Virus record (IMG/VR): IMGVR_UViG_3300050821_002969
Coordinates: 64,001 to 103,362 of that record
Length of the DNA stretch: 39,362 nt
Source of the DNA: a virus
Taxonomy: Duplodnaviria > Heunggongvirae > Uroviricota > Caudoviricetes
Reading direction: 5' to 3' (one strand)
The notes under the pieces are model-generated. The model did not search any database. It worked only from the letters and a program-made list of their open reading frames with translations, and was not told where the DNA came from. Made by a program: the position numbers and the translations under genes. Shown here one piece after another: positions 19,318-36,737 of the stretch. Positions within the stretch are counted from its first letter, which is position 1. The number at the start of each line of letters is the position of its first letter.

Positions 19318-20275
19318 TCATGTATTTCTTAATGCAATTATGGTTGGCACATAATACTTGGTAGTCTTCGGGGTGTTTAATGGCGCGTAATATAACCGCG
19401 TAAGAACCACCAAGTGCTCTAATCTCTTTTCTGCCGCCTCCCTTAATGTGGTCAATCTGTAAAACTCGGCGGTCAATAATCCCGCATCCAGCCCATGTAC
19501 ACTGGTTCCCGAGCACGCTAAATACTTTATCTCTATGCGTTAAGCGTTTCTCTTTTTGGTATTCCCTGTCGCAAGCCAAGCAACACCATACCCAAATCTT
19601 TCCGGCTTTTGTTTTCATAAGACCAAATTCGTCTGGATATTGTTTTGGTTGATTACACAAGCGGCAAATGCGAATTTCTTTAGGCTCCGCAACCTTCAAT
19701 GCAGATGGACGGCCACCCCTGCCGATCTTGCCGCTAGTTTCATTGTTTAAATGTCGCTTAATCCAATTGTGATTAGCACAAAGCAATTGAAAGCCAATAG
19801 GGTTATCTCTAGCCTGACGATAGAGCTTGTGCATTCCGATAGTTCTGCGCTGGATACCCCCTCCACCCTCGATATGGTCTAGTTGCAGAACCCGTGGATC
19901 AGTCCAATCGCAACCCTCAGTCCAGTTGCATTTATTTCCCAATAGCGAAAACAGATCAGATTTTAGGCGATTGTAGTTTTTTCGCCCTAACTTACGATGA
20001 CACTGCTTGCACCTAGCGGGACCAAGGTTTCCAGTTGCGCTATCTTTTTGAAGCGCAAAATCTTCTGGGTAAGCCTTTTCGTTCCCGCAATTACTGCAAA
20101 CATGGACGGTTTTTGGCCCCAACGGGGCGTGGCGCGTGATCCAGGATTTCTTTACTTGCTCGCTATCTGAGGGCATATTCCAGATTTTACCGCAGATGAA
20201 CATGGCATTACATGGCGAGTTTATAGGAGTTATCAGAAGGTAAAACGGTCTTGGGCGCGTCTCTCTGCAATGCAA
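19274..20275 (-). CDS. HNH endonuclease with tandemly duplicated Zn-finger + HNH unit
   Basis: Two copies of LGNxC-W-GC..D-RVLQ[LI]DHI-GGG..Q[LV]LCANHN-IK. Confidence 0.75.
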   Translation of the reverse strand: MHCRETRPRPFYLLITPINSPCNAMFICGKIWNMPSDSEQVKKSWITRHAPLGPKTVHVCSNCGNEKAYPEDFALQKDSATGNLGPARCKQCHRKLGRKNYNRLKSDLFSLLGNKCNWTEGCDWTDPRVLQLDHIEGGGGIQRRTIGMHKLYRQARDNPIGFQLLCANHNWIKRHLNNETSGKIGRGGRPSALKVAEPKEIRICRLCNQPKQYPDEFGLMKTKAGKIWVWCCLACDREYQKEKRLTHRDKVFSVLGNQCTWAGCGIIDRRVLQIDHIKGGGRKEIRALGGSYAVILRAIKHPEDYQVLCANHNCIKKYMNANEHSAYGFGEVA

Positions 20276-20776: not shown

Positions 20777-21358
20777 TTATCTTGTTTCTCCTTTGGCGTT
20801 AATCCACTTCGTGCGCTTGAGGTAGAGAATCATTGACTCCAAAGTAGCAATATCATGGCGTGCTAGCCCAATGGCCGTGTTGCATGGGGTACATAGTAAA
20901 CCACGGACACATTTGCCGCAAGATTTTCTTTCTGAACAGCAATCGGTATCGTGGTCCACGCAGAGGCGGCGCACCCTGCCCGTGGTTGGTTCCTTTGCGG
21001 GACATATTGCACAATGTCCATCTTGAGAATTTAGTATTCTTGCGTAATCCTCAATCGTTAGATTGTAGTTATAGCCAAGGAGATAATCGGGGCGATATTC
21101 GGGATGGGATTCGCGCCACTTCTTGTTTAGCCTACCGCGCTGAATACGATTGGCGTTGTTCCATGCACGGTTGTAGAAGGTTACCTTGTCACGATTGTTG
21201 CGTTTCCATTTTTTGCACCGCTCTTTTTCGTAATCTGGATTCGCGGCGTGATATGCATCGTTGTACTGTTTGACGTGTTCTGCGTTTTTCAGTTTCCACG
21301 CCTTTAAGTATTCTGCCTTCTTGATCTTTTGTTCTGGTGTTAATGTTTTATTGGTCAT
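20777..21358 (-). CDS. Endonuclease VII-family HNH nuclease
   Basis: YNLTIEDY..QDGHCAIC..LCVDHD..VRGLLCTPCNTAIG. Confidence 0.8.
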   Translation of the reverse strand: MTNKTLTPEQKIKKAEYLKAWKLKNAEHVKQYNDAYHAANPDYEKERCKKWKRNNRDKVTFYNRAWNNANRIQRGRLNKKWRESHPEYRPDYLLGYNYNLTIEDYARILNSQDGHCAICPAKEPTTGRVRRLCVDHDTDCCSERKSCGKCVRGLLCTPCNTAIGLARHDIATLESMILYLKRTKWINAKGETR

Positions 21359-21390
21359 TGCTACAGTATAGCAGTAACCTACTGAAAATA

Positions 21391-22797
21391 CTACCCTCCG
21401 CGCATCAGCGGCAAGTCCGGGTGATACGATTCTGAGCGTTGCTCTTGGTCCTTGGCGTCTAGGCAACGTAAGACGTTTTGTTCGTGCTTCGCTTGCATTG
21501 TGGGAAATCTAGGGTCCTCATACCAGCTCAGGGCCGCCGCCAAAACTCCACTTCTTAAGCAGTACGCCAAATTATCCGGCCACGGAAACCAAGTATTTTG
21601 TAGCGAAGTTTTAATCGGCGCTTTCTGCTGGTAGAAGATGAATGCTTGCCAGATTTGGCTAGACGGTACAGGCCAAAAGCGAAATGTCAACGTGGTTCCG
21701 AACGCTTGCCCACTAGGGCTGCCAATGGTTTCCAAGATTCCGTTTGCGATAATGATAGGCGTGTTGGCGGCAACATAAAGAACCTGTGGATTAACGGAAA
21801 ACGCAGTGGAAGTGGTAACCAGATTTTGCGCCGCGTTTACACTTAGCTTCCATGTTGTGGCCGTGGTCGAATCGTTGAGCAAGAAGAAAGATTGGCCAAC
21901 AAGGTTGGTAAGCGTGATGGTAATTTGGCCAGCCGCGTTTACGCCAAGAAGCCAGTTGCCGCCGTTTGGGTCTTGTAAGACTATCGGCGTAACCGCAGGC
22001 GTGTTTTCGAGCAACATGCAGACCTTGAATGGCGGCTGGATAATGCTCTCGATATAGAGGCTAGAAACCACTTCTATGTCGTGTACGGGCCTCACTGTGC
22101 CCGTATTCATGTAATCCTGAAGGGTGCAGTGGGAAACCCAGTTTAAGTCGCCTATACCCTGCCCGCCATCGTTTTGTAGGCCGGTAGTCGCAACCGTAAA
22201 TTTAACTCCCAAAATGCCGCCATTGGTTCCGGTAACAAGCGCGGTTATGGGAGCGTTGGTTACGTTCATGGCGGGCTGTGCCGCGCCGGTAATGGTGACT
22301 ACTTGACCTACTTGCGGAATGCTGCTACCGGAAGTAACCGGCTGCGATCCCGGAGGGCCGTTTAGTCCAAATGTTCCATTGGGGGCGAAGTCGGAAAACA
22401 ACGCGGTAACCGTAGTGCCAGATTGCGATAGCCCTGGCCCGCTAGCCGAGATAACAGAATTCAAATGAACTACACATATCGGTACCGGAGGCTGTATTCC
22501 AGCATTTACACTCATCTGGCAGCCAGATAAAACGTAGTCTTGCTGGTATGGGATAGTGGTAAACGGGGCTATTGCTCCCTTGTTAAACTTCCAATCGTAG
22601 GGAGACGAAAGCAGCAGTTGCAAGGTATCGTTGCAGATTGATAGCGCAGGCTCGTTGGGCACACCCCCGGCACCGATGAGTGGGGCCATACGCAGATGGG
22701 TCTGACAAAACGATACCACGTCATTCAGGCTCAATGTGCTACTCAACGGCCACCCTCCGCGCCAATATTTTTCCCATGTGCGAGTAGAAAAACTCAA
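21391..22797 (-). CDS. Head-tail adaptor / tail tubular A-like protein with insertions; start likely near 22746
   Basis: N-terminal helical NDTLQLLL..YDWKFN; C-terminal FWPVPS..FYQQKAP..WPD. Confidence 0.55.
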   Translation of the reverse strand: MSFSTRTWEKYWRGGWPLSSTLSLNDVVSFCQTHLRMAPLIGAGGVPNEPALSICNDTLQLLLSSPYDWKFNKGAIAPFTTIPYQQDYVLSGCQMSVNAGIQPPVPICVVHLNSVISASGPGLSQSGTTVTALFSDFAPNGTFGLNGPPGSQPVTSGSSIPQVGQVVTITGAAQPAMNVTNAPITALVTGTNGGILGVKFTVATTGLQNDGGQGIGDLNWVSHCTLQDYMNTGTVRPVHDIEVVSSLYIESIIQPPFKVCMLLENTPAVTPIVLQDPNGGNWLLGVNAAGQITITLTNLVGQSFFLLNDSTTATTWKLSVNAAQNLVTTSTAFSVNPQVLYVAANTPIIIANGILETIGSPSGQAFGTTLTFRFWPVPSSQIWQAFIFYQQKAPIKTSLQNTWFPWPDNLAYCLRSGVLAAALSWYEDPRFPTMQAKHEQNVLRCLDAKDQEQRSESYHPDLPLMRGG

Positions 22798-23497
22798 CCG
22801 AGTGAGCCATTTTCATTCGATTGCAAATGCCGCAGCATGGAACAATGTTCCAACTAGCATATCCCTTACCACTATCTAATCTGTCAATCCCGTTATAAAC
22901 ATATGGAAGCGGCTGGTATTCACCTAGGTATCCTCGACATTTATAGACCTGCGACGGGGCGGTTCCGCAAAAATAACAATCCATCCGCGTGATTAACTTG
23001 AATTCATTTATGGAAATACTGAATTCTCTGTTTGCCCTTTTGGCGGCGCTTTTATATTGAGCAAACAAATTGTTGGCGGCTGCTTCGTTTTTGGTACTAC
23101 GAGGCTTGTGATATATGCAGCCACAGCTTTTAACCGACCTCTTAAACAGTTGGCATGGTAATACGTCTTTTGCACCGCCACATTCACACAAACACTTCCA
23201 GCGTATAGATGTGTGTTCTTGGCGAAGTGCCGTTTTCTTTATTGTGGTCGGTTCGCCTATGCCGACAACGGTTAGTTTGCCGAAGACCTTACCTATTTGC
23301 AATTCGTAATCCGTGGAACATCCACACGTTGCAGAATTGCCGGTTCTTAAATCTCGGCCACGCACCAGTGTCTCTCTGCCGCAATCACATTTACACACCC
23401 ACGCTGCGAGCGTACCCTTGCCGTTTGGCTTATTTTCCCCGCGCCGCAACACAAGCAATTTACCGAATCTTTGGTCAGTTAAATCTATTACTCTCAT
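22739..23497 (-). CDS. Free-standing HNH homing endonuclease with repeated DLTxQRFGKL/CxCxCG units
   Basis: Two WxCxCxCG units; CYFCG..NGIDRLDS..NIVPCCGICNRMK. Confidence 0.8.
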   Translation of the reverse strand: MRVIDLTDQRFGKLLVLRRGENKPNGKGTLAAWVCKCDCGRETLVRGRDLRTGNSATCGCSTDYELQIGKVFGKLTVVGIGEPTTIKKTALRQEHTSIRWKCLCECGGAKDVLPCQLFKRSVKSCGCIYHKPRSTKNEAAANNLFAQYKSAAKRANREFSISINEFKLITRMDCYFCGTAPSQVYKCRGYLGEYQPLPYVYNGIDRLDSGKGYASWNIVPCCGICNRMKMAHSVEFFYSHMGKILARRVAVE

Positions 23498-25137
23498 TAG
23501 AACCCCGAGCACTGCCAGCGAATATGATCCGAAGTTCCGCCACCGCTTTCTTGTACGGTTACGGATGAGGTTGCGTAAGTGTTAAAAGAAATAATCCCCG
23601 CCGCGTTGGTTAGGTCGGAACCGGAACAGGAGTAATCGGCGGCTGCCGTAAATGGCAGACCCGTGATTGATTGAGTGGCCGCGCTATTTAGTAACACGTC
23701 GCCGCGAATTACGTAAAACGTAGGCTTTACCGTTCCCGCACATGCTTGCGTGCCGCCGCTTGTAGAACCACAATCTTGAAATACCGCGCCAGACACCGTA
23801 ATGGAAGCGTCGGGAAGGGTGGATGTACGGTTTGCCGATGGGGCGCTAGTTAGTGTGTTTGTAAACGTGGTGGCACCGCCACCGGTAAGCGCCACAGTGT
23901 CAAACGTCTGTGCGTAGTAACGATAGATACACGGCCCTTCGGCGCTGCCAACCTGTAACGGCGGGCAGTATATTAATCTTCCAGTGAAACTACTGTTGTA
24001 TTCGTTGGTAATTCGCGTACCGAACACTAAGTCTTCCGGCTCTAGGCGAATAGCGTTCGGGGAATTATTGGTAAGGCTCCAAAAATTAGTTACCGTATGC
24101 CCAACTGCAACAAATTCCTGAAGGCCGCGCACATCCAGTGTGTCTCCGCCAAACGTCATATTTTGGGCAACGGTTCCAGTGGGAAGGTCGTTCTCCACTT
24201 CTCCGCCGCGAATAAAAACCTTTCCCGCCGCCGCGTTTATCCACTGGTCGGACGTTGCGGCGTAAGTGCAGCCCATAATGCACCCGGCGTTCTCGAAATG
24301 GATAATATCCAGTGTTAGAGTGGAATTACCGCTCATATTGAAGCCATTCACAATGTTGTCATCAATCGACATATTCGAGAACGACATTTCCGATCCTGTA
24401 GCCGTCATTGATACGCCGGTATTGTTGGAGCATATGCAGCCGCCAATAAACGTATTGTGTTCAACAAGTAAATCATTCAAAATGCCAACATTGTTGCCAG
24501 ATATTTGAGCGTTTACGCTAGTCAGGTCAAACGTGCTATGAACATATAGGCCAGTAGCAAATCCCGCCCCAAGTTTCCCGATTCTTACGTTTGAAATAAA
24601 TTGTTGGTCGGTACCGGAAGATGGCCCTAGGCTTACACCAACGGAAGTAACGCCAGAACAATTTGGGGCGTTTCCAGAGTTTGTACACGCACCATAGATT
24701 GCCAAATCCCTGATTCCCCACCCGGTAAAATGGGCAGCAGTATAGTCAAACGTAATAGCCGTACCGGACGACGGGGTGAACGTAAGACACGTCGCACCCC
24801 CTGGATCGCCCTCTATCATGGCCGGTTTAGACGAGACGTTAAATAGTATTGGCGTTAGATATGACCAGCATCCGCCAGATGGGTTTGGTGGAATTCTTAG
24901 ACGGCAACCGGTAGCGCCGCACTGTGTACTCGCATATGCGGTGTTTACTTGCGCCCCAATATCGCTACCATTAAAGAATGTCGGGTTAATTATTGCGTTG
25001 ACCGACGACATGGTTTGTGGGCCGGTCCACGCGCAGGTTTGGTCTAGCGCACAAAAAATGTGGGTAGTTTGCGAGGTTAGAACAAGCGCAGAAAACAATA
25101 CTACAATGGCGCTGCCAATCCAGAATAATTTCTTCAA
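23497..25137 (-). CDS. Tailspike-like right-handed beta-helix (pectate lyase-like) protein with hydrophobic N-terminal leader
   Basis: Gly/Asn/Ile-rich rungs (IRDLAIYG, ISGNNVGI, IDDNIVNG); MKKLFWIGSAIVVLFSALVL. Confidence 0.7.
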   Translation of the reverse strand: MKKLFWIGSAIVVLFSALVLTSQTTHIFCALDQTCAWTGPQTMSSVNAIINPTFFNGSDIGAQVNTAYASTQCGATGCRLRIPPNPSGGCWSYLTPILFNVSSKPAMIEGDPGGATCLTFTPSSGTAITFDYTAAHFTGWGIRDLAIYGACTNSGNAPNCSGVTSVGVSLGPSSGTDQQFISNVRIGKLGAGFATGLYVHSTFDLTSVNAQISGNNVGILNDLLVEHNTFIGGCICSNNTGVSMTATGSEMSFSNMSIDDNIVNGFNMSGNSTLTLDIIHFENAGCIMGCTYAATSDQWINAAAGKVFIRGGEVENDLPTGTVAQNMTFGGDTLDVRGLQEFVAVGHTVTNFWSLTNNSPNAIRLEPEDLVFGTRITNEYNSSFTGRLIYCPPLQVGSAEGPCIYRYYAQTFDTVALTGGGATTFTNTLTSAPSANRTSTLPDASITVSGAVFQDCGSTSGGTQACAGTVKPTFYVIRGDVLLNSAATQSITGLPFTAAADYSCSGSDLTNAAGIISFNTYATSSVTVQESGGGTSDHIRWQCSGF

Positions 25138-25322
25138 GCGGCTAGCTCCTTAATCTCGATTGCGCGGGCACGCATGATAGCCTTGCCAATTTCGTAGGTT
25201 TTTCGGGTAAGACGTTCTTCCCAAAAAAGATTTAACTTGCGACCGAACGCTTCGCGATGCAACCTGTTTCTTAGTTGCCGCAGGAACCAGTAGGCGTTCG
25301 TAGTCGAGCGTAAGTCCCGCAC
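25134..25322 (-). CDS. Hypothetical protein
   Basis: Overlaps tailspike start. Confidence 0.35.
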   Translation of the reverse strand: MRDLRSTTNAYWFLRQLRNRLHREAFGRKLNLFWEERLTRKTYEIGKAIMRARAIEIKELAA

Positions 25323-25354
25323 GAAACGATTCTAGGGGAGTTGATGGATGGGTT

Positions 25355-25882
25355 TCAGTCCACGTAAACTACGCTGTTTCCACGCTGGGTGGGTATCCTC
25401 AACTTTTCTTTGTATTGCGACCAGATTTCTTCGGTCAAGCATTCTTCGCGCTTTGGACTAAACAATGCAGGACAGTGTTGGCAAATTCCGCGAGTTATAC
25501 CGTCAGATTGACGCGCCCAGGCGATTGCGCTACTTTGATCTTCGCGTTGGTGACTACAGCTATTGGCGCGAAGCACCTGGCCTTCCCAGTATGCTTTCTG
25601 TGCTTGGAGTTTAGCTTCGTGCGCCCTGGCCTGTTGTTTTTCATGGAATTCGCTTACGGGCGGCTTGCGAGCTACCTCAATAGCTTGAGCCAGTTTTTCG
25701 GCAAACATTACTTGGCTTTCGTTCATTTTAGCGTTGAACGCAGCCAATAGTTGCGCAAATTCGCTTACGGGAACAGCGATTGTGCTGGTTGATTCGGTTG
25801 GTAGCTCTGCGGTGGGTTCTAGCTCTGCTGGTACTTCTACTGCTTCAAATGGATTAACCTTACTACGGGCCAAACGGTTCAC
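25355..25882 (-). CDS. Hypothetical protein with coiled coil and Cys/His C-terminal domain
   Basis: CSHQRED..GICQHCP. Confidence 0.55.
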   Translation of the reverse strand: MNRLARSKVNPFEAVEVPAELEPTAELPTESTSTIAVPVSEFAQLLAAFNAKMNESQVMFAEKLAQAIEVARKPPVSEFHEKQQARAHEAKLQAQKAYWEGQVLRANSCSHQREDQSSAIAWARQSDGITRGICQHCPALFSPKREECLTEEIWSQYKEKLRIPTQRGNSVVYVD

Positions 25883-25893
25883 GCTCCTAAGTG

Positions 25894-26379
25894 TTAAATG
25901 CTATACAAGATTCTACTGCCAACGCCAACCCCTTCGGCCAATTCAGCATCTATCTCTTTCTTGCGAGCGGCGGATACCATGGTCCACATCGTCTTGGCGG
26001 CACGGTAGGATAAATCTGTGGCAGCTTTTTTAACAACGGGGTCGATTGCCAACGATAAATCGGACATCGAAAAATAATCGCTATATTGCCGCATGGTAGC
26101 AAATTCGGGCAGTAAATCATCGGCGGCAATCTCGTGCAACGTGAACGGATGAATGATGCCAAAATATGCGTCCTTGCCCTGTATGTAGGTTGCGGTTTGG
26201 AGTTGGTTTACTGCGTTGCGAAGATCGGATGCCGTTAAAACGCCAGCAGTCTTTGGGATGAACCACTTTGGGCTACGCTTAACCCAAGAGATGAATTCGG
26301 CAAAGAACCCAACCTCTGCCATGGTTGCTGTAGCAACCCCAGCGCCAGCGGCTAATTGCAGGAAGCGTCTACGGTTCAC
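25894..26379 (-). CDS. Twin-arginine-signal protein containing rearranged major-capsid-like segments
   Basis: [18 protein letters not shown]; [17 protein letters not shown] matches this phage's capsid LSASLTRQAV..FAGIIHPF; QYSDY..AIDPVV..SYRAAKT. Confidence 0.7.
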
Positions 26380-26543
26380 TTCTCTGGCCGGTCATCTACA
26401 AGTTCTTTCATGGCAGATTTAAACTCTTTTATGCCTTGTCCGATTCCCTTGCCCAGTTCCGGCAGTTTGCGTGGACCAAAGACAAGTATGGCAATACCGA
26501 AAATTACCAGCAGGTGCATGGGTTGGAACAATCCTTCAAACAT
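26376..26543 (-). CDS. tatA: Twin-arginine translocase TatA/E subunit (55 aa, below the ORF-track cutoff)
   Basis: [55 protein letters not shown]; FG hinge, LPELG amphipathic helix; GAGGAG RBS. Confidence 0.92.
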
Positions 26544-26805
26544 TTTTACTCCTCACGTCCGCGTGATTTTCTTGGACTTTAAGGATTGTACCATCCGAAG
26601 CAAGGCCAACGGCCACAGCGTTACCTTTGTGGTCGCGGATTGATATGTAATGCGCGTTATCTCCGATTGGGTCACTAACACACGGCCCAGCATCAATCAA
26701 GTGTATGTCCACGCCAGACCATCGCCTAATGAGCGCCTTAATGCCAGCAGCCTCTACCTCGGTCAACCCACCGTGATATGCAGTTGAAGATGGTGCGTAT
26801 GCCAT
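26536..26805 (-). CDS. Hypothetical protein
   Basis: ORF fills the gap and overlaps the tatA start. Confidence 0.5.
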
Positions 26806-27636
26806 TTATTTCACCAGTAACCTTTCGTCTATTTCCGCTTGCGCTACGCCAGACTCAGCTACGGAGATTAGCGACCCGGAATAAGAGTAAATTCCCCAAT
26901 GTTTCAACGTAACCCATGGGGCCATCCAAACCTTGCCGCCTATCGACTTCCACATACGCGAAAACCAGTAGTCCTCGGAAAGATAGTGATTGGTTTCGGG
27001 GTCAATCTCCGCGCGGTAAAAGTCGTAAATCTCTGGACCATAGAAAGACGGCTCATCCGACATTGGCGTGTAAGATTTTACCTTGCCAGAATCAATCATC
27101 TTTTGATACACGGAGCGGTTTAACAGCATGAACCCAGTTCCCGCGTCCGTAACTTCGTTTAATGTATCTAGGCTGATTTGGGTCACCTTTTGGTCTTGCG
27201 TTTTGCCAACGATGTTGACAACGAAATCCCCGCACAATTTGTCTAGGCTATCAACGTCAATTTGTGGGTTAAGAATAACCGCTTTTTTAACGCGCGACCA
27301 GTTGATTTGTTTCTTGGGATACGGTGCGGCAATAAATTCCTCGTCTAGCGTGAGACATTTCAGCACGTCCGCAGCCGAAAACTCTATGTCGCCATCAATC
27401 AGCATTTGGTGGCTAAAGGTGGACGACATAAACAGGTCGGCTTGGCGGTTTCTGGCGCGAGTTACCAAGCTATCGTGCATGAAGTTAATGGATAGCGGGA
27501 CTTCATAGGCGCGGCAGAGACTTGCCAGCGAAAGCAATCCGTTCACGTAGGGCGATAGGCAACTTAGGTTATAGACTGGAGTGGTAAGAAACAAGCTCTT
27601 TCCGGCTAGTTGGTCTACTCGCACTGCTTCCACCAC
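26806..27636 (-). CDS. GT-A (family 2-like) glycosyltransferase
   Basis: LTTPVY, DSLVTRARN, IDGDIEF (DxD), AGTGFMLL, YLSEDYWF. Confidence 0.8.
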   Translation of the reverse strand: MVEAVRVDQLAGKSLFLTTPVYNLSCLSPYVNGLLSLASLCRAYEVPLSINFMHDSLVTRARNRQADLFMSSTFSHQMLIDGDIEFSAADVLKCLTLDEEFIAAPYPKKQINWSRVKKAVILNPQIDVDSLDKLCGDFVVNIVGKTQDQKVTQISLDTLNEVTDAGTGFMLLNRSVYQKMIDSGKVKSYTPMSDEPSFYGPEIYDFYRAEIDPETNHYLSEDYWFSRMWKSIGGKVWMAPWVTLKHWGIYSYSGSLISVAESGVAQAEIDERLLVK

Positions 27637-28127
27637 ATCCTAGAATTTTCCGCCAAATTGAAAGTACCCAAAACCTCCGTAACGCCCTGCACTACTCCGG
27701 GAGAACCCATGTCGTAATCGTGACCACAAATGATGCCGCCAGATTCTATAACCGATAGCGCGGTCTTAACATCGCGGACAACGAATTCGTATCTATGCGA
27801 GCCGTCCACAAATATAAAATCATACTTAGGCGGCTTCGGCGCTTGCGTGAAGTCTAGGTTATCGTGGTCCGCTTTCCATGGAAGCACCTTGCCGGTAGCT
27901 ATGTGGTCGGCTAGATTCTTTGTGAAGTTATCGTAAATCTCTTGTCGCGCTTTCCATGTAATCACAATATCTTCTGGCCCCTTGAAGTTATCGCAGGCAA
28001 TCACGAATCCAGAAGTATTGTCAGCCAAGGCACGAGTAGAGCGGCCATAATAGCTGCCCATTTCTAGTATCTTGGTATGCGTTGTAGCCTGCCATGCAAG
28101 AAACTCTAGGTCGCAGGTGTTCATCAA
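27615..28127 (-). CDS. Class I SAM methyltransferase (Methyltransf_24-like)
   Basis: LEMGSYYGRST; FVDGSHRYE; IICGHDY. Confidence 0.85.
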   Translation of the reverse strand: MMNTCDLEFLAWQATTHTKILEMGSYYGRSTRALADNTSGFVIACDNFKGPEDIVITWKARQEIYDNFTKNLADHIATGKVLPWKADHDNLDFTQAPKPPKYDFIFVDGSHRYEFVVRDVKTALSVIESGGIICGHDYDMGSPGVVQGVTEVLGTFNLAENSRMWWKQCE

Positions 28128-28189
28128 CCCTTTTGTGTTTCTTGCTTTTACGATGTCAATTGGGGCGGAATAAACAAGGGAATTGTTAT

Positions 28190-28528
28190 CTAGGGTGATA
28201 CATCCACCTGTAATCTGAGAGTTTTTCCCTTGAGTTCGCTGCGCAGGATTGGCGCGGGACGGGAAGGCTTGGAATCGTCCTCATAAGTAAAACAAGAGAT
28301 AGCATACTTTCTTTCGGTGTTTTGTACAACCAGCAGTTCCGGCTTCTTGCCGGAATCTCCTAGACGACCGTTTAGGGTAATCCAAACATCGCCAGCGCCG
28401 TTAATTTGCGTGCGCTTGACCGTGGCTTGGCTACCGTCTGGGCGGGAGAGTTCCAAAATGAAATCATCGGGATTATCGCCAATGTCTAACGGTATCGGCG
28501 GCTCGAAGGAATTCCAGTAGATTTTCAA
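28190..28528 (-). CDS. Hypothetical protein
   Basis: 112-aa ORF in the operon. Confidence 0.5.
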   Translation of the reverse strand: MKIYWNSFEPPIPLDIGDNPDDFILELSRPDGSQATVKRTQINGAGDVWITLNGRLGDSGKKPELLVVQNTERKYAISCFTYEDDSKPSRPAPILRSELKGKTLRLQVDVSP

Positions 28529-28584
28529 GAATTAACCAATCCTATTTTTCTCTCTGCATAAATAGATTGTTTTCAACAACTTGA

Positions 28585-28944
28585 CTAGTACTGCACGATC
28601 ACAAGGTCCACTGTCTGTTGCAAGTTAAGATTGCCGTTCGTCGAGTTAATCACTGGAACCTGTACGCGGGGATGGCTTCCGGTTGCATACGATGTGCCGG
28701 TTGGAGCAAGTAACTGCACTGTTCCAAACGACAAACCAGAGTTCATGTTGGCGTTAGAAAATGTTGCTGGCAGGGTTGCTTCCACTTGCCCATTGCCCTG
28801 GAACATCCACGGAACGGTAATCGTAACGGTAGTCTGCCCACCGTTCCCGGTAACATTGCCAGCGGCCAAGGCGTTCGGAGCGTATACACGCGCCTTTTCC
28901 GATCCAACGGTGCGAGTCCAGTTACTGCGCTGAAAGGTTCCCAT
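28585..28944 (-). CDS. Putative small virion (decoration-like) protein
   Basis: Thr/Gly/Asn/Val-rich beta composition, few charged residues. Confidence 0.45.
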   Translation of the reverse strand: MGTFQRSNWTRTVGSEKARVYAPNALAAGNVTGNGGQTTVTITVPWMFQGNGQVEATLPATFSNANMNSGLSFGTVQLLAPTGTSYATGSHPRVQVPVINSTNGNLNLQQTVDLVIVQY

Positions 28945-28947
28945 AGA

Positions 28948-29442
28948 TTATTCTCCTATGTTAACTCTGGCTAGCTCACCGAATACTTCTTTTGCCGCCC
29001 TGTCGTATGCCTTAGCGGCTTCCGTCTTGTCGGTAAAACTTCCCAGATACTTGGTTTTTCTGGCAACCGTAATATTTGCGTGCCAGCGTTTTTTGTTCTT
29101 GTGCCACGTTACACCCTTAAGTCCGCTTACGTTTCCGATGCGCGGCTTAGTGTTGTGTGCGTTTCTATTCCTAGTAGCGTATATAAGATTTGATCGCTGA
29201 TAATTTAGCGTGTTCAAATCCTTGTGGTCGCATACTAAATCTTTTGGCTTTGGACCAATTACTAAATGGTGCAACCAAAGCTGTTTTGTTTTTCCGTACT
29301 GCCCACCGCCGCGAGTGCTAACAACGTAACCATTTTCATTTAACCACCACTCGCTATGCTTAACTGCCGCCTCGTATACATCATCGTCTACAATCGCCGT
29401 CTTTTTGGAGTTGGTTAATGGTAAGAGCTTCATAAGAAGCAT
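28948..29442 (-). CDS. HNH-AP2 homing endonuclease
   Basis: LHHLVI..CDHKDLNTLNYQRSNL; SGLKGVTWHK..YLGSF..AAKAYDRAA. Confidence 0.85.
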   Translation of the reverse strand: MLLMKLLPLTNSKKTAIVDDDVYEAAVKHSEWWLNENGYVVSTRGGGQYGKTKQLWLHHLVIGPKPKDLVCDHKDLNTLNYQRSNLIYATRNRNAHNTKPRIGNVSGLKGVTWHKNKKRWHANITVARKTKYLGSFTDKTEAAKAYDRAAKEVFGELARVNIGE

Positions 29443-29461
29443 TTTACCATGCTCCCCACGC

Positions 29462-29851
29462 TCAAATCCCTTGATTAAAAATGAACAACAGGCGCGAATT
29501 GGTGTTGATGTTAGCCGCGCTGCCCATGCCGTAGAATGTAACGTTGATGCCAGAGCTATTCTGGAACACGCTAGAAATAGCTACGTTAGTGGTATTCAAA
29601 AAGTTGATGTTGGAGTTTTGAATGTTCGGCGCTGGCGAGTTGTAGTTGGTATTCGCGAGCAGCGTTACCGCGATAGGTAGCGTAAACGTGTTAGAAGAAA
29701 AGAATGAACCACTGCCAGTAGCGGGCGCGACGAGCGTAACAGTTGTGGCGCTGTTGCTGGTTAAGGCGATATTTTGATTGATGGTCGCCTCGCACCAAAG
29801 GCCCACAGACGAAGATTGTGCAGAAGACAGGACGCCAACGTTGGAACTCAT
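29462..29851 (-). CDS. Putative small virion protein
   Basis: Ser/Asn/Thr-rich beta composition. Confidence 0.45.
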   Translation of the reverse strand: MSSNVGVLSSAQSSSVGLWCEATINQNIALTSNSATTVTLVAPATGSGSFFSSNTFTLPIAVTLLANTNYNSPAPNIQNSNINFLNTTNVAISSVFQNSSGINVTFYGMGSAANINTNSRLLFIFNQGI

Positions 29852-29980
29852 AGAAAATCTCCTTGGGCAGCGATGCGTGCCCCACAACAGTTAAAAGCAT
29901 AGAGAAGATTTAAGATGGCTTGCAATAGGCTGGAAAATAAAGGGGCCGCCCAGATAAACTACTGTTAAACGATGCAAGAT

Positions 29981-30868
29981 TTATTTTTGGTTGGCTTTTA
30001 CGGTGTCCAGAACGTAACGGGCCACGGATTCGGTTGTAAGGTTTTCTCTAACGTGTGCCATGACCGATTCAATGACACGATGATAAAAATCTACAGCGGT
30101 GTCGCATCCGGCCACTCCGTACTCTATTAACTGCATAACGAGAAGCAATTCCTTGCGCGGCAGGCGATGCATGACGGTCTTGGGCGCTGCATCTAATACC
30201 CTAAAATACGGCAAACACGCTTGCGAAAGTATTTCTTCATGGCGCATACATTCCCACCCGCTTTTCTTCATGGTCGGAGCAAAGTAGCTATCTCGGTACC
30301 CTTGGTAATACTCGTTTTCATCCTCGAAAATATAGGTGCGGTTTATTAGCGGGTCATATTCCGCCATGAACCTTTTCTTTTCTGGTATCTCGGTAACCAC
30401 TTTTTCTTTTGGTACACCGAAGTGTATCGGTAAGAAGTCCCAATTATCGCCCAGGAGTTCGCGCTTAAAATAGGTTCCATACTTATAGATATTCAGCGCC
30501 TGCGGGTAGTCCTCGCCATCAATAAAAACCACCCTTTCGGGCGGATACGTGGCCGTAACGCCGCCGAAATACGCTTGGTTTCTTTGGATTCCACCGTAGA
30601 TCACCAAATCAAAGAATTTATTTTGCAACTTCTCTACTATGTCCGTTCGGTCGCAGTTTGTGTCTGGTGGAAGTAGGCCGAAAAGCGTAAATCCTTTTCC
30701 ATACAAGTCCGACAACCTCGCCTTGCCGTCGCCAAAACTATCGGCATACATGTACCAAGCCCTGCGATAATCAACCACGTCGTCTCCCATAAGCATCTTT
30801 AGGCCATGCAAAACCGTGTCCTGTTGATAATCCGGTGCATCGCCGTTGGTTAGGAAGAGTATCTTCAT
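29981..30868 (-). CDS. Putative GT-B-like glycosyltransferase
   Basis: FIDGED, KRELL, KKSGWECMRHEEIL..CLPYF. Confidence 0.55.
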   Translation of the reverse strand: MKILFLTNGDAPDYQQDTVLHGLKMLMGDDVVDYRRAWYMYADSFGDGKARLSDLYGKGFTLFGLLPPDTNCDRTDIVEKLQNKFFDLVIYGGIQRNQAYFGGVTATYPPERVVFIDGEDYPQALNIYKYGTYFKRELLGDNWDFLPIHFGVPKEKVVTEIPEKKRFMAEYDPLINRTYIFEDENEYYQGYRDSYFAPTMKKSGWECMRHEEILSQACLPYFRVLDAAPKTVMHRLPRKELLLVMQLIEYGVAGCDTAVDFYHRVIESVMAHVRENLTTESVARYVLDTVKANQK

Positions 30869-31134
30869 GGCTCAACCTCGATTGGGAAGTGTTGGTTAAA
30901 CCAGAATTGGCCACGATTTCTATAGCTTTGTTGAACGTGCTCACGCCAAGTATGGGGTTGTTTGCATGGGCGGAACCCAAGACCGTAATATGCGCTCATG
31001 GGTGCGAGTTCTCCTAAGCCATAACGCGGAGCGACACTGTAATCGGAATGCATTTCTTGGCAAGTCCAATCGTTCATAAAATCTAGTGGGTGTACTTCGT
31101 CGAATGGTACGCGGCAATAGTTGCAAACTTTCAT
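30865..31134 (-). CDS. Small Cys-containing hypothetical protein
   Basis: Coupled by ATGA overlaps. Confidence 0.4.
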   Translation of the reverse strand: MKVCNYCRVPFDEVHPLDFMNDWTCQEMHSDYSVAPRYGLGELAPMSAYYGLGFRPCKQPHTWREHVQQSYRNRGQFWFNQHFPIEVEP

Positions 31135-31769
31135 AGCTTTTTAAACACCGCAATCCAGTCCTTCCACTGGTCACCGCTGATAACCTCTTCGCCTAGCTTG
31201 AATTCGTATTCGCTGATGTGACTATAAATTAATTCTGCGGGATGCCCCATCTTGCGCGACCACGCTTCCAGCGCCTTACCAGCCCCCGGATAGAACCTCC
31301 AGCAATCTACTGGGCATGGATGGTATGGACCGCAACTTGGGGCCATAATGTAAATCAGCCCACCAGTCTTGGCAATGCGAATCATCTCCATGAACAGCAA
31401 CCAGAAAAACCCTACATGCTCCAGCGTGGAGGAAGAAACAACGATGTCCGCGTATTCGCTTGGCAAGTCTACCGAGTACGGGTCGCTGGTAACAATATCT
31501 ACGTTCTTTCCCGAAACGCAATCTACGCCTACAAACTTAACGCTTTCTGGGATTACCTCACGGATGGAACCGTTGATGTCTTGGGAGCCAAATTCCACCA
31601 CTGTCGCGGTTTCTGGAGGAATTTCATTGGCAAACTTGTTAAAGAAAAACTTGGCGTTTTCGTATCCCGTTCCGTGCATGTAATTGGTAATCCAGTTGGC
31701 TATTCTGTCGGTTGTTGATTTGTCGTATATACGCGATTCGGCAATTACAAGGTTTTGCACGTTATCCAC
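31131..31769 (-). CDS. Class I SAM methyltransferase (type 11-like)
   Basis: VEFGSQDING; STLEHV; YH..PVDCWRF. Confidence 0.85.
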   Translation of the reverse strand: MDNVQNLVIAESRIYDKSTTDRIANWITNYMHGTGYENAKFFFNKFANEIPPETATVVEFGSQDINGSIREVIPESVKFVGVDCVSGKNVDIVTSDPYSVDLPSEYADIVVSSSTLEHVGFFWLLFMEMIRIAKTGGLIYIMAPSCGPYHPCPVDCWRFYPGAGKALEAWSRKMGHPAELIYSHISEYEFKLGEEVISGDQWKDWIAVFKKL

Positions 31770-32002
31770 ATGCCGTCCATTACGTCGCCTTCTTTTACTA
31801 ACGGAAACGATTCGTGCTCAACAATGAAATAGAAGCAATACTTGGCCGAATCGAAACCAGAATTTATGATCTTGCCGCCTTCTGGAATCCCGCCCGCTTC
31901 CACTAGGTAGTGGACGGTTCTCCCTTGGTTAAACATGTTGCCTAGTAAGTCTGGGCTAAAGGCTAGCATCTTAACGTGTTTACCGTTCACGGTAGTGGAC
32001 AC
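31745..32002 (-). CDS. Hypothetical protein
   Basis: ORF packed between enzyme genes. Confidence 0.45.
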   Translation of the reverse strand: MSTTVNGKHVKMLAFSPDLLGNMFNQGRTVHYLVEAGGIPEGGKIINSGFDSAKYCFYFIVEHESFPLVKEGDVMDGMWITCKTL

Positions 32003-33009
32003 CCGTGCCAGCTAAGTTGTCTCCAAGATGGTGGCATATTTTTTTCAACTTCTATGGCAGTAAACGGCTTCCCCTTGCGCGATCCAAACTGTTTAGCCCA
32101 AGCCGCCGTTCGCGCCAAGCCTTCTTCTAGGGTGACTTTTGGCGCGTAGCCGAATACCTTTTGGCACTTTGTATGGTCGCTGAAAGCGTGCAGGACTTCA
32201 TTGCGTTTATCTAGGTGCGTTACCGGCAAACTCGTTTCCATGGCTTGCTGTACGGCCTCGGAAAGTCTATTAACCGAATAGGGTATATCGGCACCTACGT
32301 TAAACGTATTTCCTTGGGCTTCCGTAATATTTACGGAGTTAGCAATGATTGGCGCTACGTCCGATACGTGTGTAAAGGCGCGAGTCTGCGTGCCATCGCC
32401 AAAGATTGTTAACGGCTCGCCTTTCATGCATTGATTCATGAATATGCCAACCACGTTGCGGTATGGGTCGGACAAGTTCTGGCGTTCGCCGTAGACGTTG
32501 TGTGGGCGAAAAACGATGTAGTTTAGCCCAAACATATCGTGCGCGGCTTTCAGGTCTAGCTCTACCGCGTACTTGCTGATACCGTAAGGATCACTTGGGC
32601 GCGGGTCCGTAGATTCCAGAAGCGGCGTTTGATTCGTGCCGTAAACCGCAATAGACGACGTAAACACGAAGCACCTAACCCCGCCATGGTTCACTGCTGC
32701 GTTTATCAGGTTCACGGAGCCAATCAGGTTGTTTGTGTAATTGTAGCGGCGAATAAAGTGAGACAACCCTTCCGCCGCGTATGCCCCGAGATGGTACACG
32801 TAGTCAATCTGGTGCGACACAAAAATCTCTCCAAGCACCGATAAGTCGTTTATGGAACCGCGCAACAGTGTCGCCTTGGGATTGACGTTCTCCGCGAAGC
32901 CGCCAGATAGATCGTCTAGAACCAAAACATCGTGGCCTAATTCGATTAGGGAGTCTACGACATGGCTCCCCAACATTCCGGCTCCCCCGGTAACAAGCGT
33001 GCGAATCAC
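31987..33009 (-). CDS. NAD-dependent nucleotide-sugar epimerase/dehydratase (extended SDR)
   Basis: VTGGAGMLG; TSSIAVYG; YGISK (YxxxK); RPHNVYG. Confidence 0.93.
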   Translation of the reverse strand: MIRTLVTGGAGMLGSHVVDSLIELGHDVLVLDDLSGGFAENVNPKATLLRGSINDLSVLGEIFVSHQIDYVYHLGAYAAEGLSHFIRRYNYTNNLIGSVNLINAAVNHGGVRCFVFTSSIAVYGTNQTPLLESTDPRPSDPYGISKYAVELDLKAAHDMFGLNYIVFRPHNVYGERQNLSDPYRNVVGIFMNQCMKGEPLTIFGDGTQTRAFTHVSDVAPIIANSVNITEAQGNTFNVGADIPYSVNRLSEAVQQAMETSLPVTHLDKRNEVLHAFSDHTKCQKVFGYAPKVTLEEGLARTAAWAKQFGSRKGKPFTAIEVEKNMPPSWRQLSWHGCPLP

Positions 33010-34364
33010 TTCTTCACCACCAATACGCCCATGCCCTGTCCCCCCGGCAAGCTAAAATTTGTTAACCCTTTATCTTTGCAGAATCGCTCGAATTCTTGGC
33101 CAACGGCTACAGACGGCCAATCGCCGCCAAATTCCTCAAATGTCTTTGGTGGATTAGTGTCGTGGCACGCTATCCAGCCACCATTCTTAACCCAGCGAAA
33201 ACAATTATGCAAATCGGCCAAGAAGCCATCCATGGAATGGTCACCATCTATAAAAGCAGCATCAAATTCGTTGTCTGGAAAGATTGCTTTCTTGCTATCG
33301 TTTTGCTCAAACGTCCAGCGCGGATGAGTCCATAGCGCAGTGCAATCGCTTATGTCGATAGAGTGTAGGTGTCCACCGTGTTCTTCTAGTCCAAGCAATA
33401 TGGCCGCCGTGCTTGCGCCGTCACGCACCCCTATCTCAAGCATTCTACCGCGCGAATTCTTTTTAAGCCACGGTAAATACTCGCGCATGTCGCCCTCTCG
33501 GCATCCGCGTTCGTAGCGTTCCATAATTGGATTTTTAGCAGGTAACGCCCCAAGTGCAGCTTCGACCGTAGCAACATAATCGCGCTTACTGAAAGCATCA
33601 AAAGCATATTGCCCCATAGCATCTATCCTACCCTTGGTTACAACATCTCGACAAATTTCTACGATGTCTTCGTACTTGCACATCACCATGGCTGGCAATA
33701 AATCATCGTAGTCGAGTGTATCGCTAGATAATTCGGTAACAATGCATTTCGAGTTGGCCATCCAGAACGATAGGCGCTGAATATTGGTAAGCGTGCGACC
33801 GTCGTGATTAACGTTTAGACATACAGCGGCAGCCGAAATCATCTGGTCGCGAGCGCCACCGTAGCACGAATCAACCGCCGCAACCCTTAGTCCCGCCGCC
33901 CTCAATTCGTCTATTATTTTTTTCCTCCGCGCGGTAATCCACCCAGAAAAAAAAACATCCCAAGCATAGCTATATGCTTTTGGAATCCGAACTAGGTTAG
34001 GCGTAAATCCGAACGGGACGTGCTGGCAATCGTAGCCCAATCGCCGCCATTCTGCCGCGTTTTGTTTGTTGTAATCCCAAACGGTTTTACCTTTAGCGAG
34101 ACGCTTGATGTTTTCCCATGCTGGGTGTAGTACGCCTTGTTCGAGATTGTAAATAATTACGTTATCCGGCAACGCTTGTTCTTTGGATAGCAACTCCGCG
34201 CCGAATAAGATATTTGTCCCGTCTTTGGAAAACGTGTTCTCGCAGATTACAACGTCGTGACCTAGCGAGCTTAGCGCCCAACTAAGGCTGTCGATGATTT
34301 CCGCGAAACCAGATGTGTGCAGAAAACCCGGTGGGCGGATTGCTACGATGTGGAACTTTGACAT
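33006..34364 (-). CDS. Glycosyltransferase (GT-B-like) fused to a class I methyltransferase
   Basis: N-terminal DVFFSG..R..CLNVNH..IVTE; C-terminal LEIGVRDGAST, IDGDHS, HD. Confidence 0.75.
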   Translation of the reverse strand: MSKFHIVAIRPPGFLHTSGFAEIIDSLSWALSSLGHDVVICENTFSKDGTNILFGAELLSKEQALPDNVIIYNLEQGVLHPAWENIKRLAKGKTVWDYNKQNAAEWRRLGYDCQHVPFGFTPNLVRIPKAYSYAWDVFFSGWITARRKKIIDELRAAGLRVAAVDSCYGGARDQMISAAAVCLNVNHDGRTLTNIQRLSFWMANSKCIVTELSSDTLDYDDLLPAMVMCKYEDIVEICRDVVTKGRIDAMGQYAFDAFSKRDYVATVEAALGALPAKNPIMERYERGCREGDMREYLPWLKKNSRGRMLEIGVRDGASTAAILLGLEEHGGHLHSIDISDCTALWTHPRWTFEQNDSKKAIFPDNEFDAAFIDGDHSMDGFLADLHNCFRWVKNGGWIACHDTNPPKTFEEFGGDWPSVAVGQEFERFCKDKGLTNFSLPGGQGMGVLVVKK

Positions 34365-34376
34365 GCGGGAATTATA

Positions 34377-34997
34377 CTATGTGCGAAACCCCGCAACTTG
34401 GTTTTTCCAATGTTTTCCGCGACTGTCGGAAAACTTTACATCCCCAAAGGTATCCAGAACTTGCTGCCACGAAATAGCCCCAAACTTCAACAGGCGCACG
34501 AGAACGGTGCGCCATCCCCACGTTGGATAAATACTAGGCAGGCCAGCCGCGTCCTCCTTCATAATCGTGAATTCTGGGACGAAACCGCGCTCGCAATACG
34601 CGTTCGTGTATTGCAACTGCTTGTCCTTGACCACGTAGAATGAGATGTTTTGCTTGAAAACGTTGCCGTCTTGGACAACTAAATTCTTGTTCATTTTGAG
34701 AATTCTGGAAACTAGCTCCCCAGAAGAGAGCACCTTGCCCATTTGCCGCTCTTTGTTACAAAAATCGTCTTGGTCTGGGTAGCGGTATTGTTCTACCTGT
34801 TTACCCGTTTCCTCCCACAACCGCAATAACTCCTCGCGGTCGCCAGCGGGAAGCAGGTTCTCCTTGTGTAGCGGCTCAACCTTGGGAGCCGTTAGCCACG
34901 CATAACAGTTCGGCTCATATCTTTCTTCTGGTTTAGGTAACGGGGTATATGTATCTGCTAGTTCTATCGCAGAACTACGCTTAACGTACTTATTCAT
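34377..34997 (-). CDS. Hypothetical phage protein
   Basis: 206-aa ORF, WGWRTVL motif. Confidence 0.55.
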   Translation of the reverse strand: MNKYVKRSSAIELADTYTPLPKPEERYEPNCYAWLTAPKVEPLHKENLLPAGDREELLRLWEETGKQVEQYRYPDQDDFCNKERQMGKVLSSGELVSRILKMNKNLVVQDGNVFKQNISFYVVKDKQLQYTNAYCERGFVPEFTIMKEDAAGLPSIYPTWGWRTVLVRLLKFGAISWQQVLDTFGDVKFSDSRGKHWKNQVAGFRT

Positions 34998-35697
34998 CTT
35001 GGCTCTGCACTTCCCCGGTCAAGATTTGCGGATGAAACCCATTGCGATCTAGCGTGATAGCGATTATCCCTCCCGGCTCTACCGGAATTTCATGGTACCC
35101 CTCGCCAACATCATCGCCCAACATTTTAAGAATTACCTGAATAAAGCTACCATGGGTAATTACAACCACAGGTAGACCCTCCATGGATATTCGCAAATAG
35201 CGGCGGAAGGCGTTGGTGGCTTGCTGACTGAAATCCCCCCATGATTGACCGGCAACAGGCTCCACTTCGGGATTGTTTTTAAACTGCTTAATATCTTCCT
35301 CGTGGTCTTCTATTGGTTCGCCCTCTATGTCGCCTAAATCCCAAGAACGTAAATCGGTATCTACATCTAGGGGAATATTCTTGGCCTCGATTAGCGGCAT
35401 CGCGGTCTGGCGAGTACGGTTAAGGTCGTCTACCGCTACTCGCGATACCTGAATATCGGCAAAGAAGTCGGCTATCTCTTGTGCCTGTTTTTCTCCCTTG
35501 TCGTCTAGGTCGGGATTAATCAACCCGCGAATCTTTTCTTGGCTGTCGGCTTTAACGTTGCCATGGCGCACCACGTACATGACTGGCTGGCCAAGTTTTG
35601 ATAACACCGAAGTCGGGGAATAGCTGTTTAAGATGTCATTCGATTGGGACGGGCTATCCCATTCGGGCATAAGTAAACTGGCAGGGGAATAACTCAC
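34990..35697 (-). CDS. Histidine phosphatase (phosphoglycerate mutase family)
   Basis: VVRHG; LNRTRQTA; LRSWDLG; VITHG. Confidence 0.88.
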   Translation of the reverse strand: MSYSPASLLMPEWDSPSQSNDILNSYSPTSVLSKLGQPVMYVVRHGNVKADSQEKIRGLINPDLDDKGEKQAQEIADFFADIQVSRVAVDDLNRTRQTAMPLIEAKNIPLDVDTDLRSWDLGDIEGEPIEDHEEDIKQFKNNPEVEPVAGQSWGDFSQQATNAFRRYLRISMEGLPVVVITHGSFIQVILKMLGDDVGEGYHEIPVEPGGIIAITLDRNGFHPQILTGEVQSQDE

Positions 35698-35715
35698 CTA
35701 GATAGGTTATCAAAC

Positions 35716-35952
35716 TTAGTAGAAAATCGGGCGTTCGTGCTCCTCGAATATCAAGGCTACACGGAAATGCGACATTTCTTCCATCTCTTTTTCTTCTGCA
35801 AGCTTGGCCAAATCTTCAGCAGGCCAGAATACGGTGGACGCATGAAATCTTGGATAAGGCTTAGAAACGGAACCAGAACGTGGCGGGAATGGACGGTGAA
35901 TACGGGCGTAGTCCGCTATTTCTTTCCTGATATCTACTAATTCGTAGTACAC
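35716..35952 (-). CDS. Hypothetical protein
   Basis: 78-aa ORF. Confidence 0.35.
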   Translation of the reverse strand: MYYELVDIRKEIADYARIHRPFPPRSGSVSKPYPRFHASTVFWPAEDLAKLAEEKEMEEMSHFRVALIFEEHERPIFY

Positions 35953-36065
35953 AAAAATAGACTACCAAAACTTAGTAGAAATCGGAACAACTTAGGAAGA
36001 AATGGCAGAGCGGGCAAAGCATCTTACAGCGAGATTGTTCGAGCACGGTACCGCACTGCGGACAA

Positions 36066-36722: not shown

Positions 36723-36737
36723 TTGGTTCCTCTCCGG

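Follow-up and report, generated by a model that had tools for sequence, protein, structure and literature searches.

A short phage TatA coupled to a twin-arginine leader protein with a capsid-like tail in soil phages that probably infect Acidobacteria

The window analysed here is a stretch of 39,362 nucleotides (nt), the last 39 kb of the complete 103,362-bp virus record IMGVR_UViG_3300050821_002969 (Caudoviricetes), in which a 55-amino-acid (aa) open reading frame (ORF) for TatA, a subunit of the twin-arginine translocation (Tat) pathway, ended on the start codon of a gene for a protein with a twin-arginine (RR) leader, referred to here as the cargo. We consider it most probable, at roughly 0.6, that this apparently host-derived TatA, coupled to the phage's sole Tat-targeted protein, boosts export or membrane insertion of the cargo via the host's own TatBC. 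The phage (G000), of about 100 kb and from soil, probably infects Acidobacteria; its GC content was 49%, and the ends of the record carried a 97-bp terminal repeat in the form of an exact end-to-end overlap. Two relatives are also named below: G406, a complete 100,880-bp phage (locus L002), and G407, a 42.5-kb fragment. The pair was laid out as follows:

26549 to 26554, minus strand: ribosome-binding site GAGGAG, 5 nt before the tatA ATG, read from the sequence
26376 to 26543, minus strand: tatA, 55 aa, matching PF02416 and TIGR01411, with a short transmembrane helix, an FGP hinge and an amphipathic helix
26376 to 26379, minus strand: GTGA overlap of the tatA stop TGA (26378-26376) with the cargo start GTG (26379-26377), read from the sequence
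25894 to 26379, minus strand: cargo gene, 161 aa, with a twin-arginine leader, a conserved module and a tail apparently derived from capsid protein
26326 to 26379, minus strand: cargo residues 1-18, twin-arginine signal NRRRFLQ, a weak hydrophobic (h-) region and A-T-A, from family alignment and hidden Markov models
26245 to 26325, minus strand: cargo residues 19-45, the best-conserved stretch of the family, with an amphipathic helix and then a W/P motif, from family alignment

The 55-aa ORF was a true TatA. It matched PF02416 with E=7e-19 and 67.2 bits (cut-off 21) and TIGR01411 (tatAE) with 69 bits (cut-off 53.9), whereas the TatB model TIGR01410 gave only 25 bits (cut-off 56.5), and it possessed the TatA/TatE hallmarks of a short N-terminal transmembrane helix, an F-G hinge and an amphipathic helix with a conserved Phe. 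An earlier note on this DNA, made from the letters alone, had called the ORF a TatA and had pointed to the GTGA overlap with the following gene; both observations held. Over its first 47 residues the protein was up to 91% identical to TatAs of Terriglobia, and the C-terminal tail of the host proteins (7-18 residues) was missing. The placement of GAGGAG favoured the 55-aa start over the 47-aa start of the database gene call (P0013). TatA must outnumber TatBC about 20-fold, and Escherichia coli TatA can do without its C-terminal tail, so the 55-aa copy could be a working unit.

No other tatA was present in the whole 103-kb genome. The absence of tatC reported in the earlier note extended to all of it, since a search with PF00902 returned nothing at E<=1, and the phage brought neither TatB nor TatC. 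A six-frame scan of the same 103 kb identified a single credible RR leader, directly after tatA.

The 55-aa tatA with its 4-nt-overlapped gene was found on nine contigs from different samples, the window included, with seven cargo alleles among them; the pairing is thus not peculiar to this genome, and tatA and cargo form a conserved two-gene module, as had been proposed, with probable coupling of their translation; a lack of conservation in relatives, which would have counted against the module, was not what the contigs showed. The other contigs with the 4-nt-overlapped pair were:

L002 (G406): complete 100,880-bp phage
L003: 1.7-kb contig
L004: 1.6-kb contig
P0009 contig: 8 kb, with the same upstream synteny as the window
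L120: 6.3-kb contig
L121-L123: three soil contigs

Cellular matches to the phage TatA numbered in the thousands, the best of them 75-91% identical. When these were sampled as one genome per species and the best 80 loci were taken, 79 were from Acidobacteriota, mostly Terriglobales/Terriglobia, at 69-91% identity. Host copies were 56-80 aa long; phage-type copies were all exactly 55 aa and shared the substitutions GIKEFK or GIKSFK where the host version read GIRGFK. A maximum-likelihood tree placed eight 55-aa TatAs, four of which have a known phage context, in one clade (ultrafast bootstrap [UFBoot] 100, Shimodaira-Hasegawa-like approximate likelihood-ratio test [SH-aLRT] 91) nested among Terriglobales TatAs, with a TatA copy from a Terriglobales metagenome-assembled genome as its sister. 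Between phage tatA copies, the ratio of nonsynonymous to synonymous substitution rates (dN/dS) was 0.09-0.15 at dS 0.9-1.5, from which we infer that the phage TatA is functional, if minimal. The gene had a GC content of 46% overall and 46% at third codon positions (GC3), against 51% and 60% in the hosts, a shift towards the 49% of the phage which argues for an old, maintained phage gene rather than contamination; the nearest host tatA genes were only 81-83% identical at the nucleotide level. An assembly chimera or host contamination was considered as the source of tatA and rejected on this composition, this divergence and the nine independent contigs. Taken together, phylogeny and composition indicate that tatA was captured once, long ago, from Terriglobia (Acidobacteriota), cut to its core and kept under purifying selection.

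At the host loci (L007-L086, Terriglobia), a tatB-like gene of 61-72 aa (MGFGTEILF...GPKRLH...) followed tatA by 3-14 nt in about 28 of 74 cases, and the hosts therefore probably use TatABC. Never, among these 74 loci, was host tatA followed by an RR-leader gene. A tblastn search of TatA against 50,697 deposited phage records gave seven matches only, at 43-59% identity, in four Listeria phages, two Staphylococcus phages and one human-faecal 'Bacteriophage sp.'; these matches were unannotated and none of the seven records names a phage tatA.

Near its N-terminus the cargo carried N-R-R-R-F-L-Q, which agrees with the (S/T)-R-R-x-F-L-K consensus. When 50 proteins of the family were aligned, R3, R4 and F6 proved invariant and L7 nearly so, and the twin-arginine leader seen in the earlier note is accordingly real. 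The h-region was weakly hydrophobic, with a Kyte-Doolittle mean of 1.35-1.42 versus 2.36 for a Sec-type signal of the same phage, and was followed by A16-T17-A18, which fits a small-x-small cleavage motif and is likely the signal-peptidase site. Nearly invariant positions in the 50 members (A18, T19, A21, G24, E28, W32, R35, P37 and P42) ran from there into the mature protein, where AlphaFold 2 (AF2) placed a helix at residues 21-34 with low confidence. Leader and N-terminal module together (the first 51 codons) showed a dN/dS of 0.10-0.25.

A search with the cargo at near full length recovered six relatives only, in which the first ~45 residues were highly conserved and the remainder was not, and a first scan of viral contigs with the single cargo protein gave nothing; a profile of the N-terminus was required. 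Run against 1.84 billion representative sequences, this profile brought up 89 proteins with E<=1e-3, and for 48 the match reached E<=1e-10. Almost all were 56-203 aa long (two or three long ones seem spurious). The build of the family is a conserved leader and a mature N-terminus of ~25 residues followed by a hypervariable tail. No member was found in 401 sampled Terriglobia genomes, which gave only generic Tat-signal hits of 25-29 bits, or in deposited and cultured phage records. The cargo thus belongs to a family of about 85 clusters that is confined to phages and had not been described before. In the four phage records examined, the family was represented exactly once per record.

Among 16 family loci, tatA occurred in loci of the ~100-kb type only, which makes it a later add-on in one clade of ~100-kb phages. 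Members without tatA stood among terminase, portal, scaffold and capsid genes, that is, in the head/packaging module. The earlier note's view of the cargo as tatA's own substrate fell short here: the family of the cargo reaches much further among phages and for the most part occurs without a phage tatA. Gene orders in tatA-less relatives were:

L088: portal, a 119-aa gene, RR gene, scaffold, capsid
L094: terminase, two genes, RR gene, portal
L093: terminase, RR gene
G407: RR gene ~5 kb upstream of portal, with a capsid protein 82-85% identical to that of this phage

No tatA was found anywhere in the 42.5 kb of G407. In another tatA-less relative (L091), a 139-aa predicted lipoprotein (…LLLVGC|SQ) was encoded at 1859-2278, two genes after the RR gene; it is a possible envelope partner, and a counterpart was not seen in the window.

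Beyond residue 45 the cargo resembled the phage's own major capsid protein. The first clue was a weak match to phrog_1357 'major head protein' over positions 176-237 only (E=0.0024), and blastp then aligned two segments with the capsid gene:

26128 to 26238, minus strand: cargo residues 48-84, like own capsid residues 157-194 (...GIIHPF... motif), 42% identity
25942 to 26094, minus strand: cargo residues 96-146, like own capsid residues 92-144, 38% identity
37831 to 39362, minus strand, from genome position 466 and across the record junction: major capsid gene (phrog_1357, E=1e-11)

The segments were non-collinear, the 92-144-like piece standing after the 157-194-like piece. With the N-terminal part of the G406 capsid protein as query, a six-frame search of this genome returned the cargo gene as a secondary hit (E=1e-5, 39% identity), and the capsid N-terminal part also found the cargo genes of G406 (4.6e-8) and G407 (6.7e-6). 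Other cargo alleles held other capsid subsets (residues 8-63, 14-40, 81-177 and 83-147). Judged by the general HK97 fold, the pieces would represent the N-arm, the stretch that leads into the long spine helix, and the beginning of the A-domain; a sequence search of the PDB with the capsid N-terminal part gave no hit. The cargo is not itself the capsid protein, having no full-length collinear match to phrog_1357, and the real capsid gene lies elsewhere. Across the family, 23 of 88 tails matched a phrog_1357-type capsid at E<=1e-3, and 57 of 89 contained none of four scanned capsid-like motifs. Two members of another subgroup weakly matched the first ~60 positions of phrog_9953 'major head protein' (E=0.01 and 0.04), a hint, suggestive only, of a second capsid type in the tails.

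The tails changed quickly and in blocks. Capsid proteins of G000 and G406 were 95% identical, yet their cargos were 36% identical and held different capsid segments. Identity of the tail segments to this phage's capsid protein was 38-57%, and those of G406 and G407 were 44% and 50% identical to their own; these are therefore not recent copies. Between L003 (1-1721) and L004 (1-1593), nucleotide identity was 100% from ~400 to the end of tatA; alignment was lost ~10-40 nt into the cargo gene for ~500 nt and resumed at 82% in a shared C-terminal module, a clean cassette swap with a sharp recombination boundary at the tatA/cargo junction. The 'QRKI...LAFNT' C-terminal module of several relatives was absent from this genome in every frame. 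Alignable tails were not neutral (dN 0.24, dS saturated) and all alleles kept long open frames. The tail is, on these comparisons, a fast-evolving, recombining and swappable mosaic that behaves like a conflict locus, a feature that the earlier note had missed. That the cargo is a remnant capsid pseudogene was considered and rejected, given open frames, a dN/dS below 1 and seven alleles with ORFs of 161-207 aa.

How might such a pair work? Late in infection, the phage TatA would join the host TatBC receptor and enlarge the pool of a subunit that is needed in large excess, and host shut-off would then no longer keep the abundant twin-arginine protein from export or from insertion through its leader. 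The invariant mature N-terminus of the cargo is probably its working end, and the variable tail probably recognises something fast-changing. As for the job of the cargo in the envelope, we rank a factor in host-phage or phage-phage conflict (exclusion or anti-defence) first, a lysis-related role second and one tied to head assembly third. Among export, jamming of Tat and destabilisation of the membrane, the three outcomes entertained in the earlier note, purifying selection on tatA and its strict coupling favour export.

Several results weigh against boosted export. The cargo leader scored just below the cut-offs of the Pfam model TAT_signal PF10518 (17.3 bits, cut-off 22.7) and of TIGR01409 (15.0 bits, cut-off 16.7); with TIGR01409 the homologue P0006 passed (16.9 versus 16.7), and P0188 and P0200 gave no hit. 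The AF2 model of the cargo, built on a 7-row alignment, had a mean predicted local distance difference test score (pLDDT) of 52.8 and a predicted template-modelling score (pTM) of 0.22, with no confident fold in the tail. Tat normally refuses unfolded passengers that expose hydrophobic surface, so with a poorly folded tail the cargo may dock at TatBC without crossing. Finally, most family members sat without a phage tatA nearby, and phage TatA is therefore unnecessary for cargo function. Structural look-alikes in the ESM Atlas (score <=0.76, TM-score <=0.42, including a P22-coat cluster at 0.37) serve as leads only.

The same pair could be read as a lysis or membrane-weakening device, in which over-produced TatA and a signal peptide that triggers its assembly act like a holin or lysis timer. 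A short TatA helix thins the membrane, and the cutting of this TatA to its membrane-active core would suit that role, as would its strict coupling, in fixed stoichiometry, to a protein that bears a leader, the amphipathic, W/K/R-rich and conserved stretch directly after that leader, and the fact that no holin was recognised in the window. We nonetheless regard a lysis device as unlikely: the family of leader plus module was widespread without phage tatA, in head modules and not beside lysins; a transglycosylase-like gene lay 16 kb from the pair; no embedded or adjacent lipoprotein partner was found; and a mere trigger peptide has no need of a tail under selection. A spanin was rejected outright, since the embedded ORFs at 25950-26162 and 26117-26266 had neither signal nor lipobox, no lipoprotein partner accompanied them, and the tail was capsid-like rather than a generic coiled coil.

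The position of the gene between terminase, portal, scaffold and capsid genes in other phages, and tails with pieces like the capsid N-arm and spine helix, raise the question of whether the cargo is a cytoplasmic head-assembly factor, with an N-terminus that is Tat-like only, capsid-like pieces acting in procapsid nucleation or scaffolding, perhaps while bound to the membrane, and tatA as an unrelated capture. A structural partner should be conserved along with the capsid, whereas G000 and G406 differ in cargo as described above despite near-identical capsids; the invariance of RR and F, the AxA-type motif behind them, and an overlap with tatA kept on nine contigs also speak against this possibility, which we think is quite doubtful.

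Equally doubtful is that the tail is a bait, imitating parts of the capsid protein, and perhaps of other major virion proteins, that are sensed by a host defence or a rival element, while the leader drags the bound factor to the membrane or away from the cytoplasm by hitchhiking. Bacterial defence is often set off by major capsid proteins, and Tat is able to carry signal-less partners. Such a bait would account for quick tail turnover and cassette swapping beside identical flanks, for the display of different capsid segments by phages with near-identical capsids, and for segments that are 38-57% identical to the resident capsid without being recent copies. However, the locus showed no link to a defence gene, 57 of 89 tails lacked the four scanned motifs, and the reasoning is wholly inferential. 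A broader form of this idea, in which the whole family is a Tat-leader weapon whose tail mimics exposed or recognised portions of major virion proteins (in this phage, the capsid protein) and which removes a capsid-recognising host sensor, or a factor of a rival phage or satellite, by hitchhiking or sequestration at TatBC, and the TatA of the ~100-kb phages adds capacity, we consider very improbable.

To much the same slight degree, the cargo might be a Tat blocker, a non-transportable substrate that occupies host TatBC and stops host Tat export (e.g., of cell-wall amidases or respiratory enzymes). A tail predicted to be poorly structured is the type of passenger arrested by Tat proofreading, and the extreme conservation of the leader is what a high-affinity TatBC ligand would show, yet a blocker gives no reason to keep a coupled, functional TatA under strong purifying selection, and a tail that diversifies so quickly is better explained by a specific partner than by a plug.

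Boosted export of the cargo remains our preferred reading, and the genes around the pair place it in a wider setting:

27615 to 37521, minus strand: sugar/methyl island, ~10 kb from the capsid gene to tatA; the island that the tatA-cargo pair ends, between the capsid gene and the adaptor/tail genes, is ~11 kb
26806 to 27636, minus strand: 276-aa protein, phrog_1574 (unknown function), E=2.7e-32
26536 to 26805, minus strand: 89-aa ORF with no family match, its stop overlapping the tatA start by 8 nt
25355 to 25882, minus strand: 175-aa gene downstream of the cargo, with invariant C-x-H ... C-x-x-C and no signal peptide

The earlier note had put the module inside the virion operon, which is too simple: the pair ends an island for sugar and methyl transfer that lies between the capsid gene and the adaptor/tail genes. 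This island, syntenic in G406, the P0009 contig and L120, encoded a metallophosphoesterase, a histidine phosphatase, a 452-aa Methyltransf_24 protein, a nucleotide-sugar epimerase, a Methyltransf_11 protein, a second Methyltransf_24 protein, the phrog_1574 protein and an HNH gene. The phrog_1574 gene was the last conserved island gene upstream of tatA, with homologues 67-68% identical in L002, L003 and L004. The 89-aa ORF was variable among relatives, which had an upstream ORF of 74 aa or 102 aa, or none. Downstream, a single hint that the cargo and its 175-aa neighbour may work together came from P0174 (203 aa; L120, 4001-4612), a complete ORF beside tatA in which the cargo is fused in frame to the C-x-H...C-x-x-C domain, C-terminal in the 175-aa protein and 55% identical to it. 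A promoter and terminator scan of 24800-28300 gave fewer sites than in shuffled sequence, Rfam at gathering thresholds found nothing within the window, and a megablast of 12 kb against phage records returned no match.

The capsid gene consisted of a 199-aa first part extending to 39132, a LAGLIDADG-type ORF at 38546-39046 (LDAEGTIY) and a C-terminal part at 37831-38181; no group I intron was detected in it by Rfam at the gathering score. Capsid genes of L088 and G406 likewise look interrupted. Four HNH/endonuclease VII-type ORFs were situated in the island and the adaptor/tail module (28948-29442, 22739-23512, 20777-21466 and 19274-20275, all on the minus strand), and the absence of some of them at the same places in G406 suggests free-standing homing endonucleases. 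In the adaptor/tail direction, a 468-aa ORF with a TTG start (21391-22797, minus strand) matched an SU10 adaptor domain at residues 367-454 only; the G406 adaptor is a 208-aa gene, and the long N-terminal part of the ORF may be non-coding or an insertion. The 546-aa protein at 23497-25137 (minus strand, TTG start) had a Sec-type signal or anchor (MKKLFWIGSAIVVLFSALVLTSQ) and a Cys-rich, beta-helix-like body, matched no Pfam or PHROG family and was 32% identical to a 609-aa G406 protein at the same place. Elsewhere on the minus strand, a 211-aa protein at 6169-6804 had YdcK beta-solenoid/bactofilin-like repeats (PF18836, E=2e-20), and a 366-aa DUF932 protein (E=6e-49) was encoded at 1619-2719.

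We found no description of a virus-encoded TatA in a full-text literature search, and a 2026 review of Tat evolution mentions phages in other contexts only, with no phage TatA (PMC13673990). A single capture from the host lineage, trimming to a minimal unit, strong purifying selection and strict coupling to the phage's sole RR protein go beyond mere adjacency and would make this locus a testable case of a virus tuning host export. It also brings to light an unnoticed phage-only family of about 85 clusters with an almost invariant leader and mature N-terminus and a hypervariable tail, which for about one member in four is visibly capsid-derived. Should the tail prove to be a molecular mimic, phages would be putting an export pathway to a new use in their conflict with hosts; should it not, the family would still be of value for research on Tat, as a natural collection of small and varied passengers that share a single conserved leader, and for soil virology, as a marker for phages of Acidobacteria.

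The closest known counterparts of the phage TatA are TatE of E. coli and TatAc of Bacillus subtilis, each a small TatA of the monocistronic type, encoded apart from tatC, that works with existing TatBC or TatC, and with these it shares the transmembrane helix, the FG hinge, the amphipathic helix and scores above the family cut-offs. Unlike them, it is viral, 55 aa long, coupled to a dedicated twin-arginine protein and part of a phage-only clade. The phoD-tatAd-tatCd genes of B. subtilis form a substrate-dedicated Tat operon, in which, as here, a Tat component is co-expressed with and adjoins one particular substrate; the phage module differs in lacking tatC, in placing tatA before the substrate with overlapping codons, and in carrying a small mosaic protein rather than an enzyme. 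In Tat 'hitchhiker' complexes, such as the small and large subunits of hydrogenase or DmsAB, an RR-bearing subunit carries a signal-less partner, as the cargo, fused in one relative to the Cys/His-rich domain encoded downstream, could also do, although the phage cargo has a candidate partner only and is no cofactor-binding enzyme. To the HK97-fold capsid protein of phrog_1357 the cargo is related through two tail segments, 38-42% identical to residues 92-144 and 157-194, but it carries these as non-collinear fragments in a 161-aa protein behind an export signal and is not a capsid protein. The cyanophage gene psbA is a host-derived auxiliary phage gene, and the parallel with tatA is that one subunit of a host membrane machine was apparently captured from the host lineage, kept under purifying selection and used to sustain a process during infection; in the phages described here, what is boosted seems to benefit a protein specific to the phage and not host metabolism.

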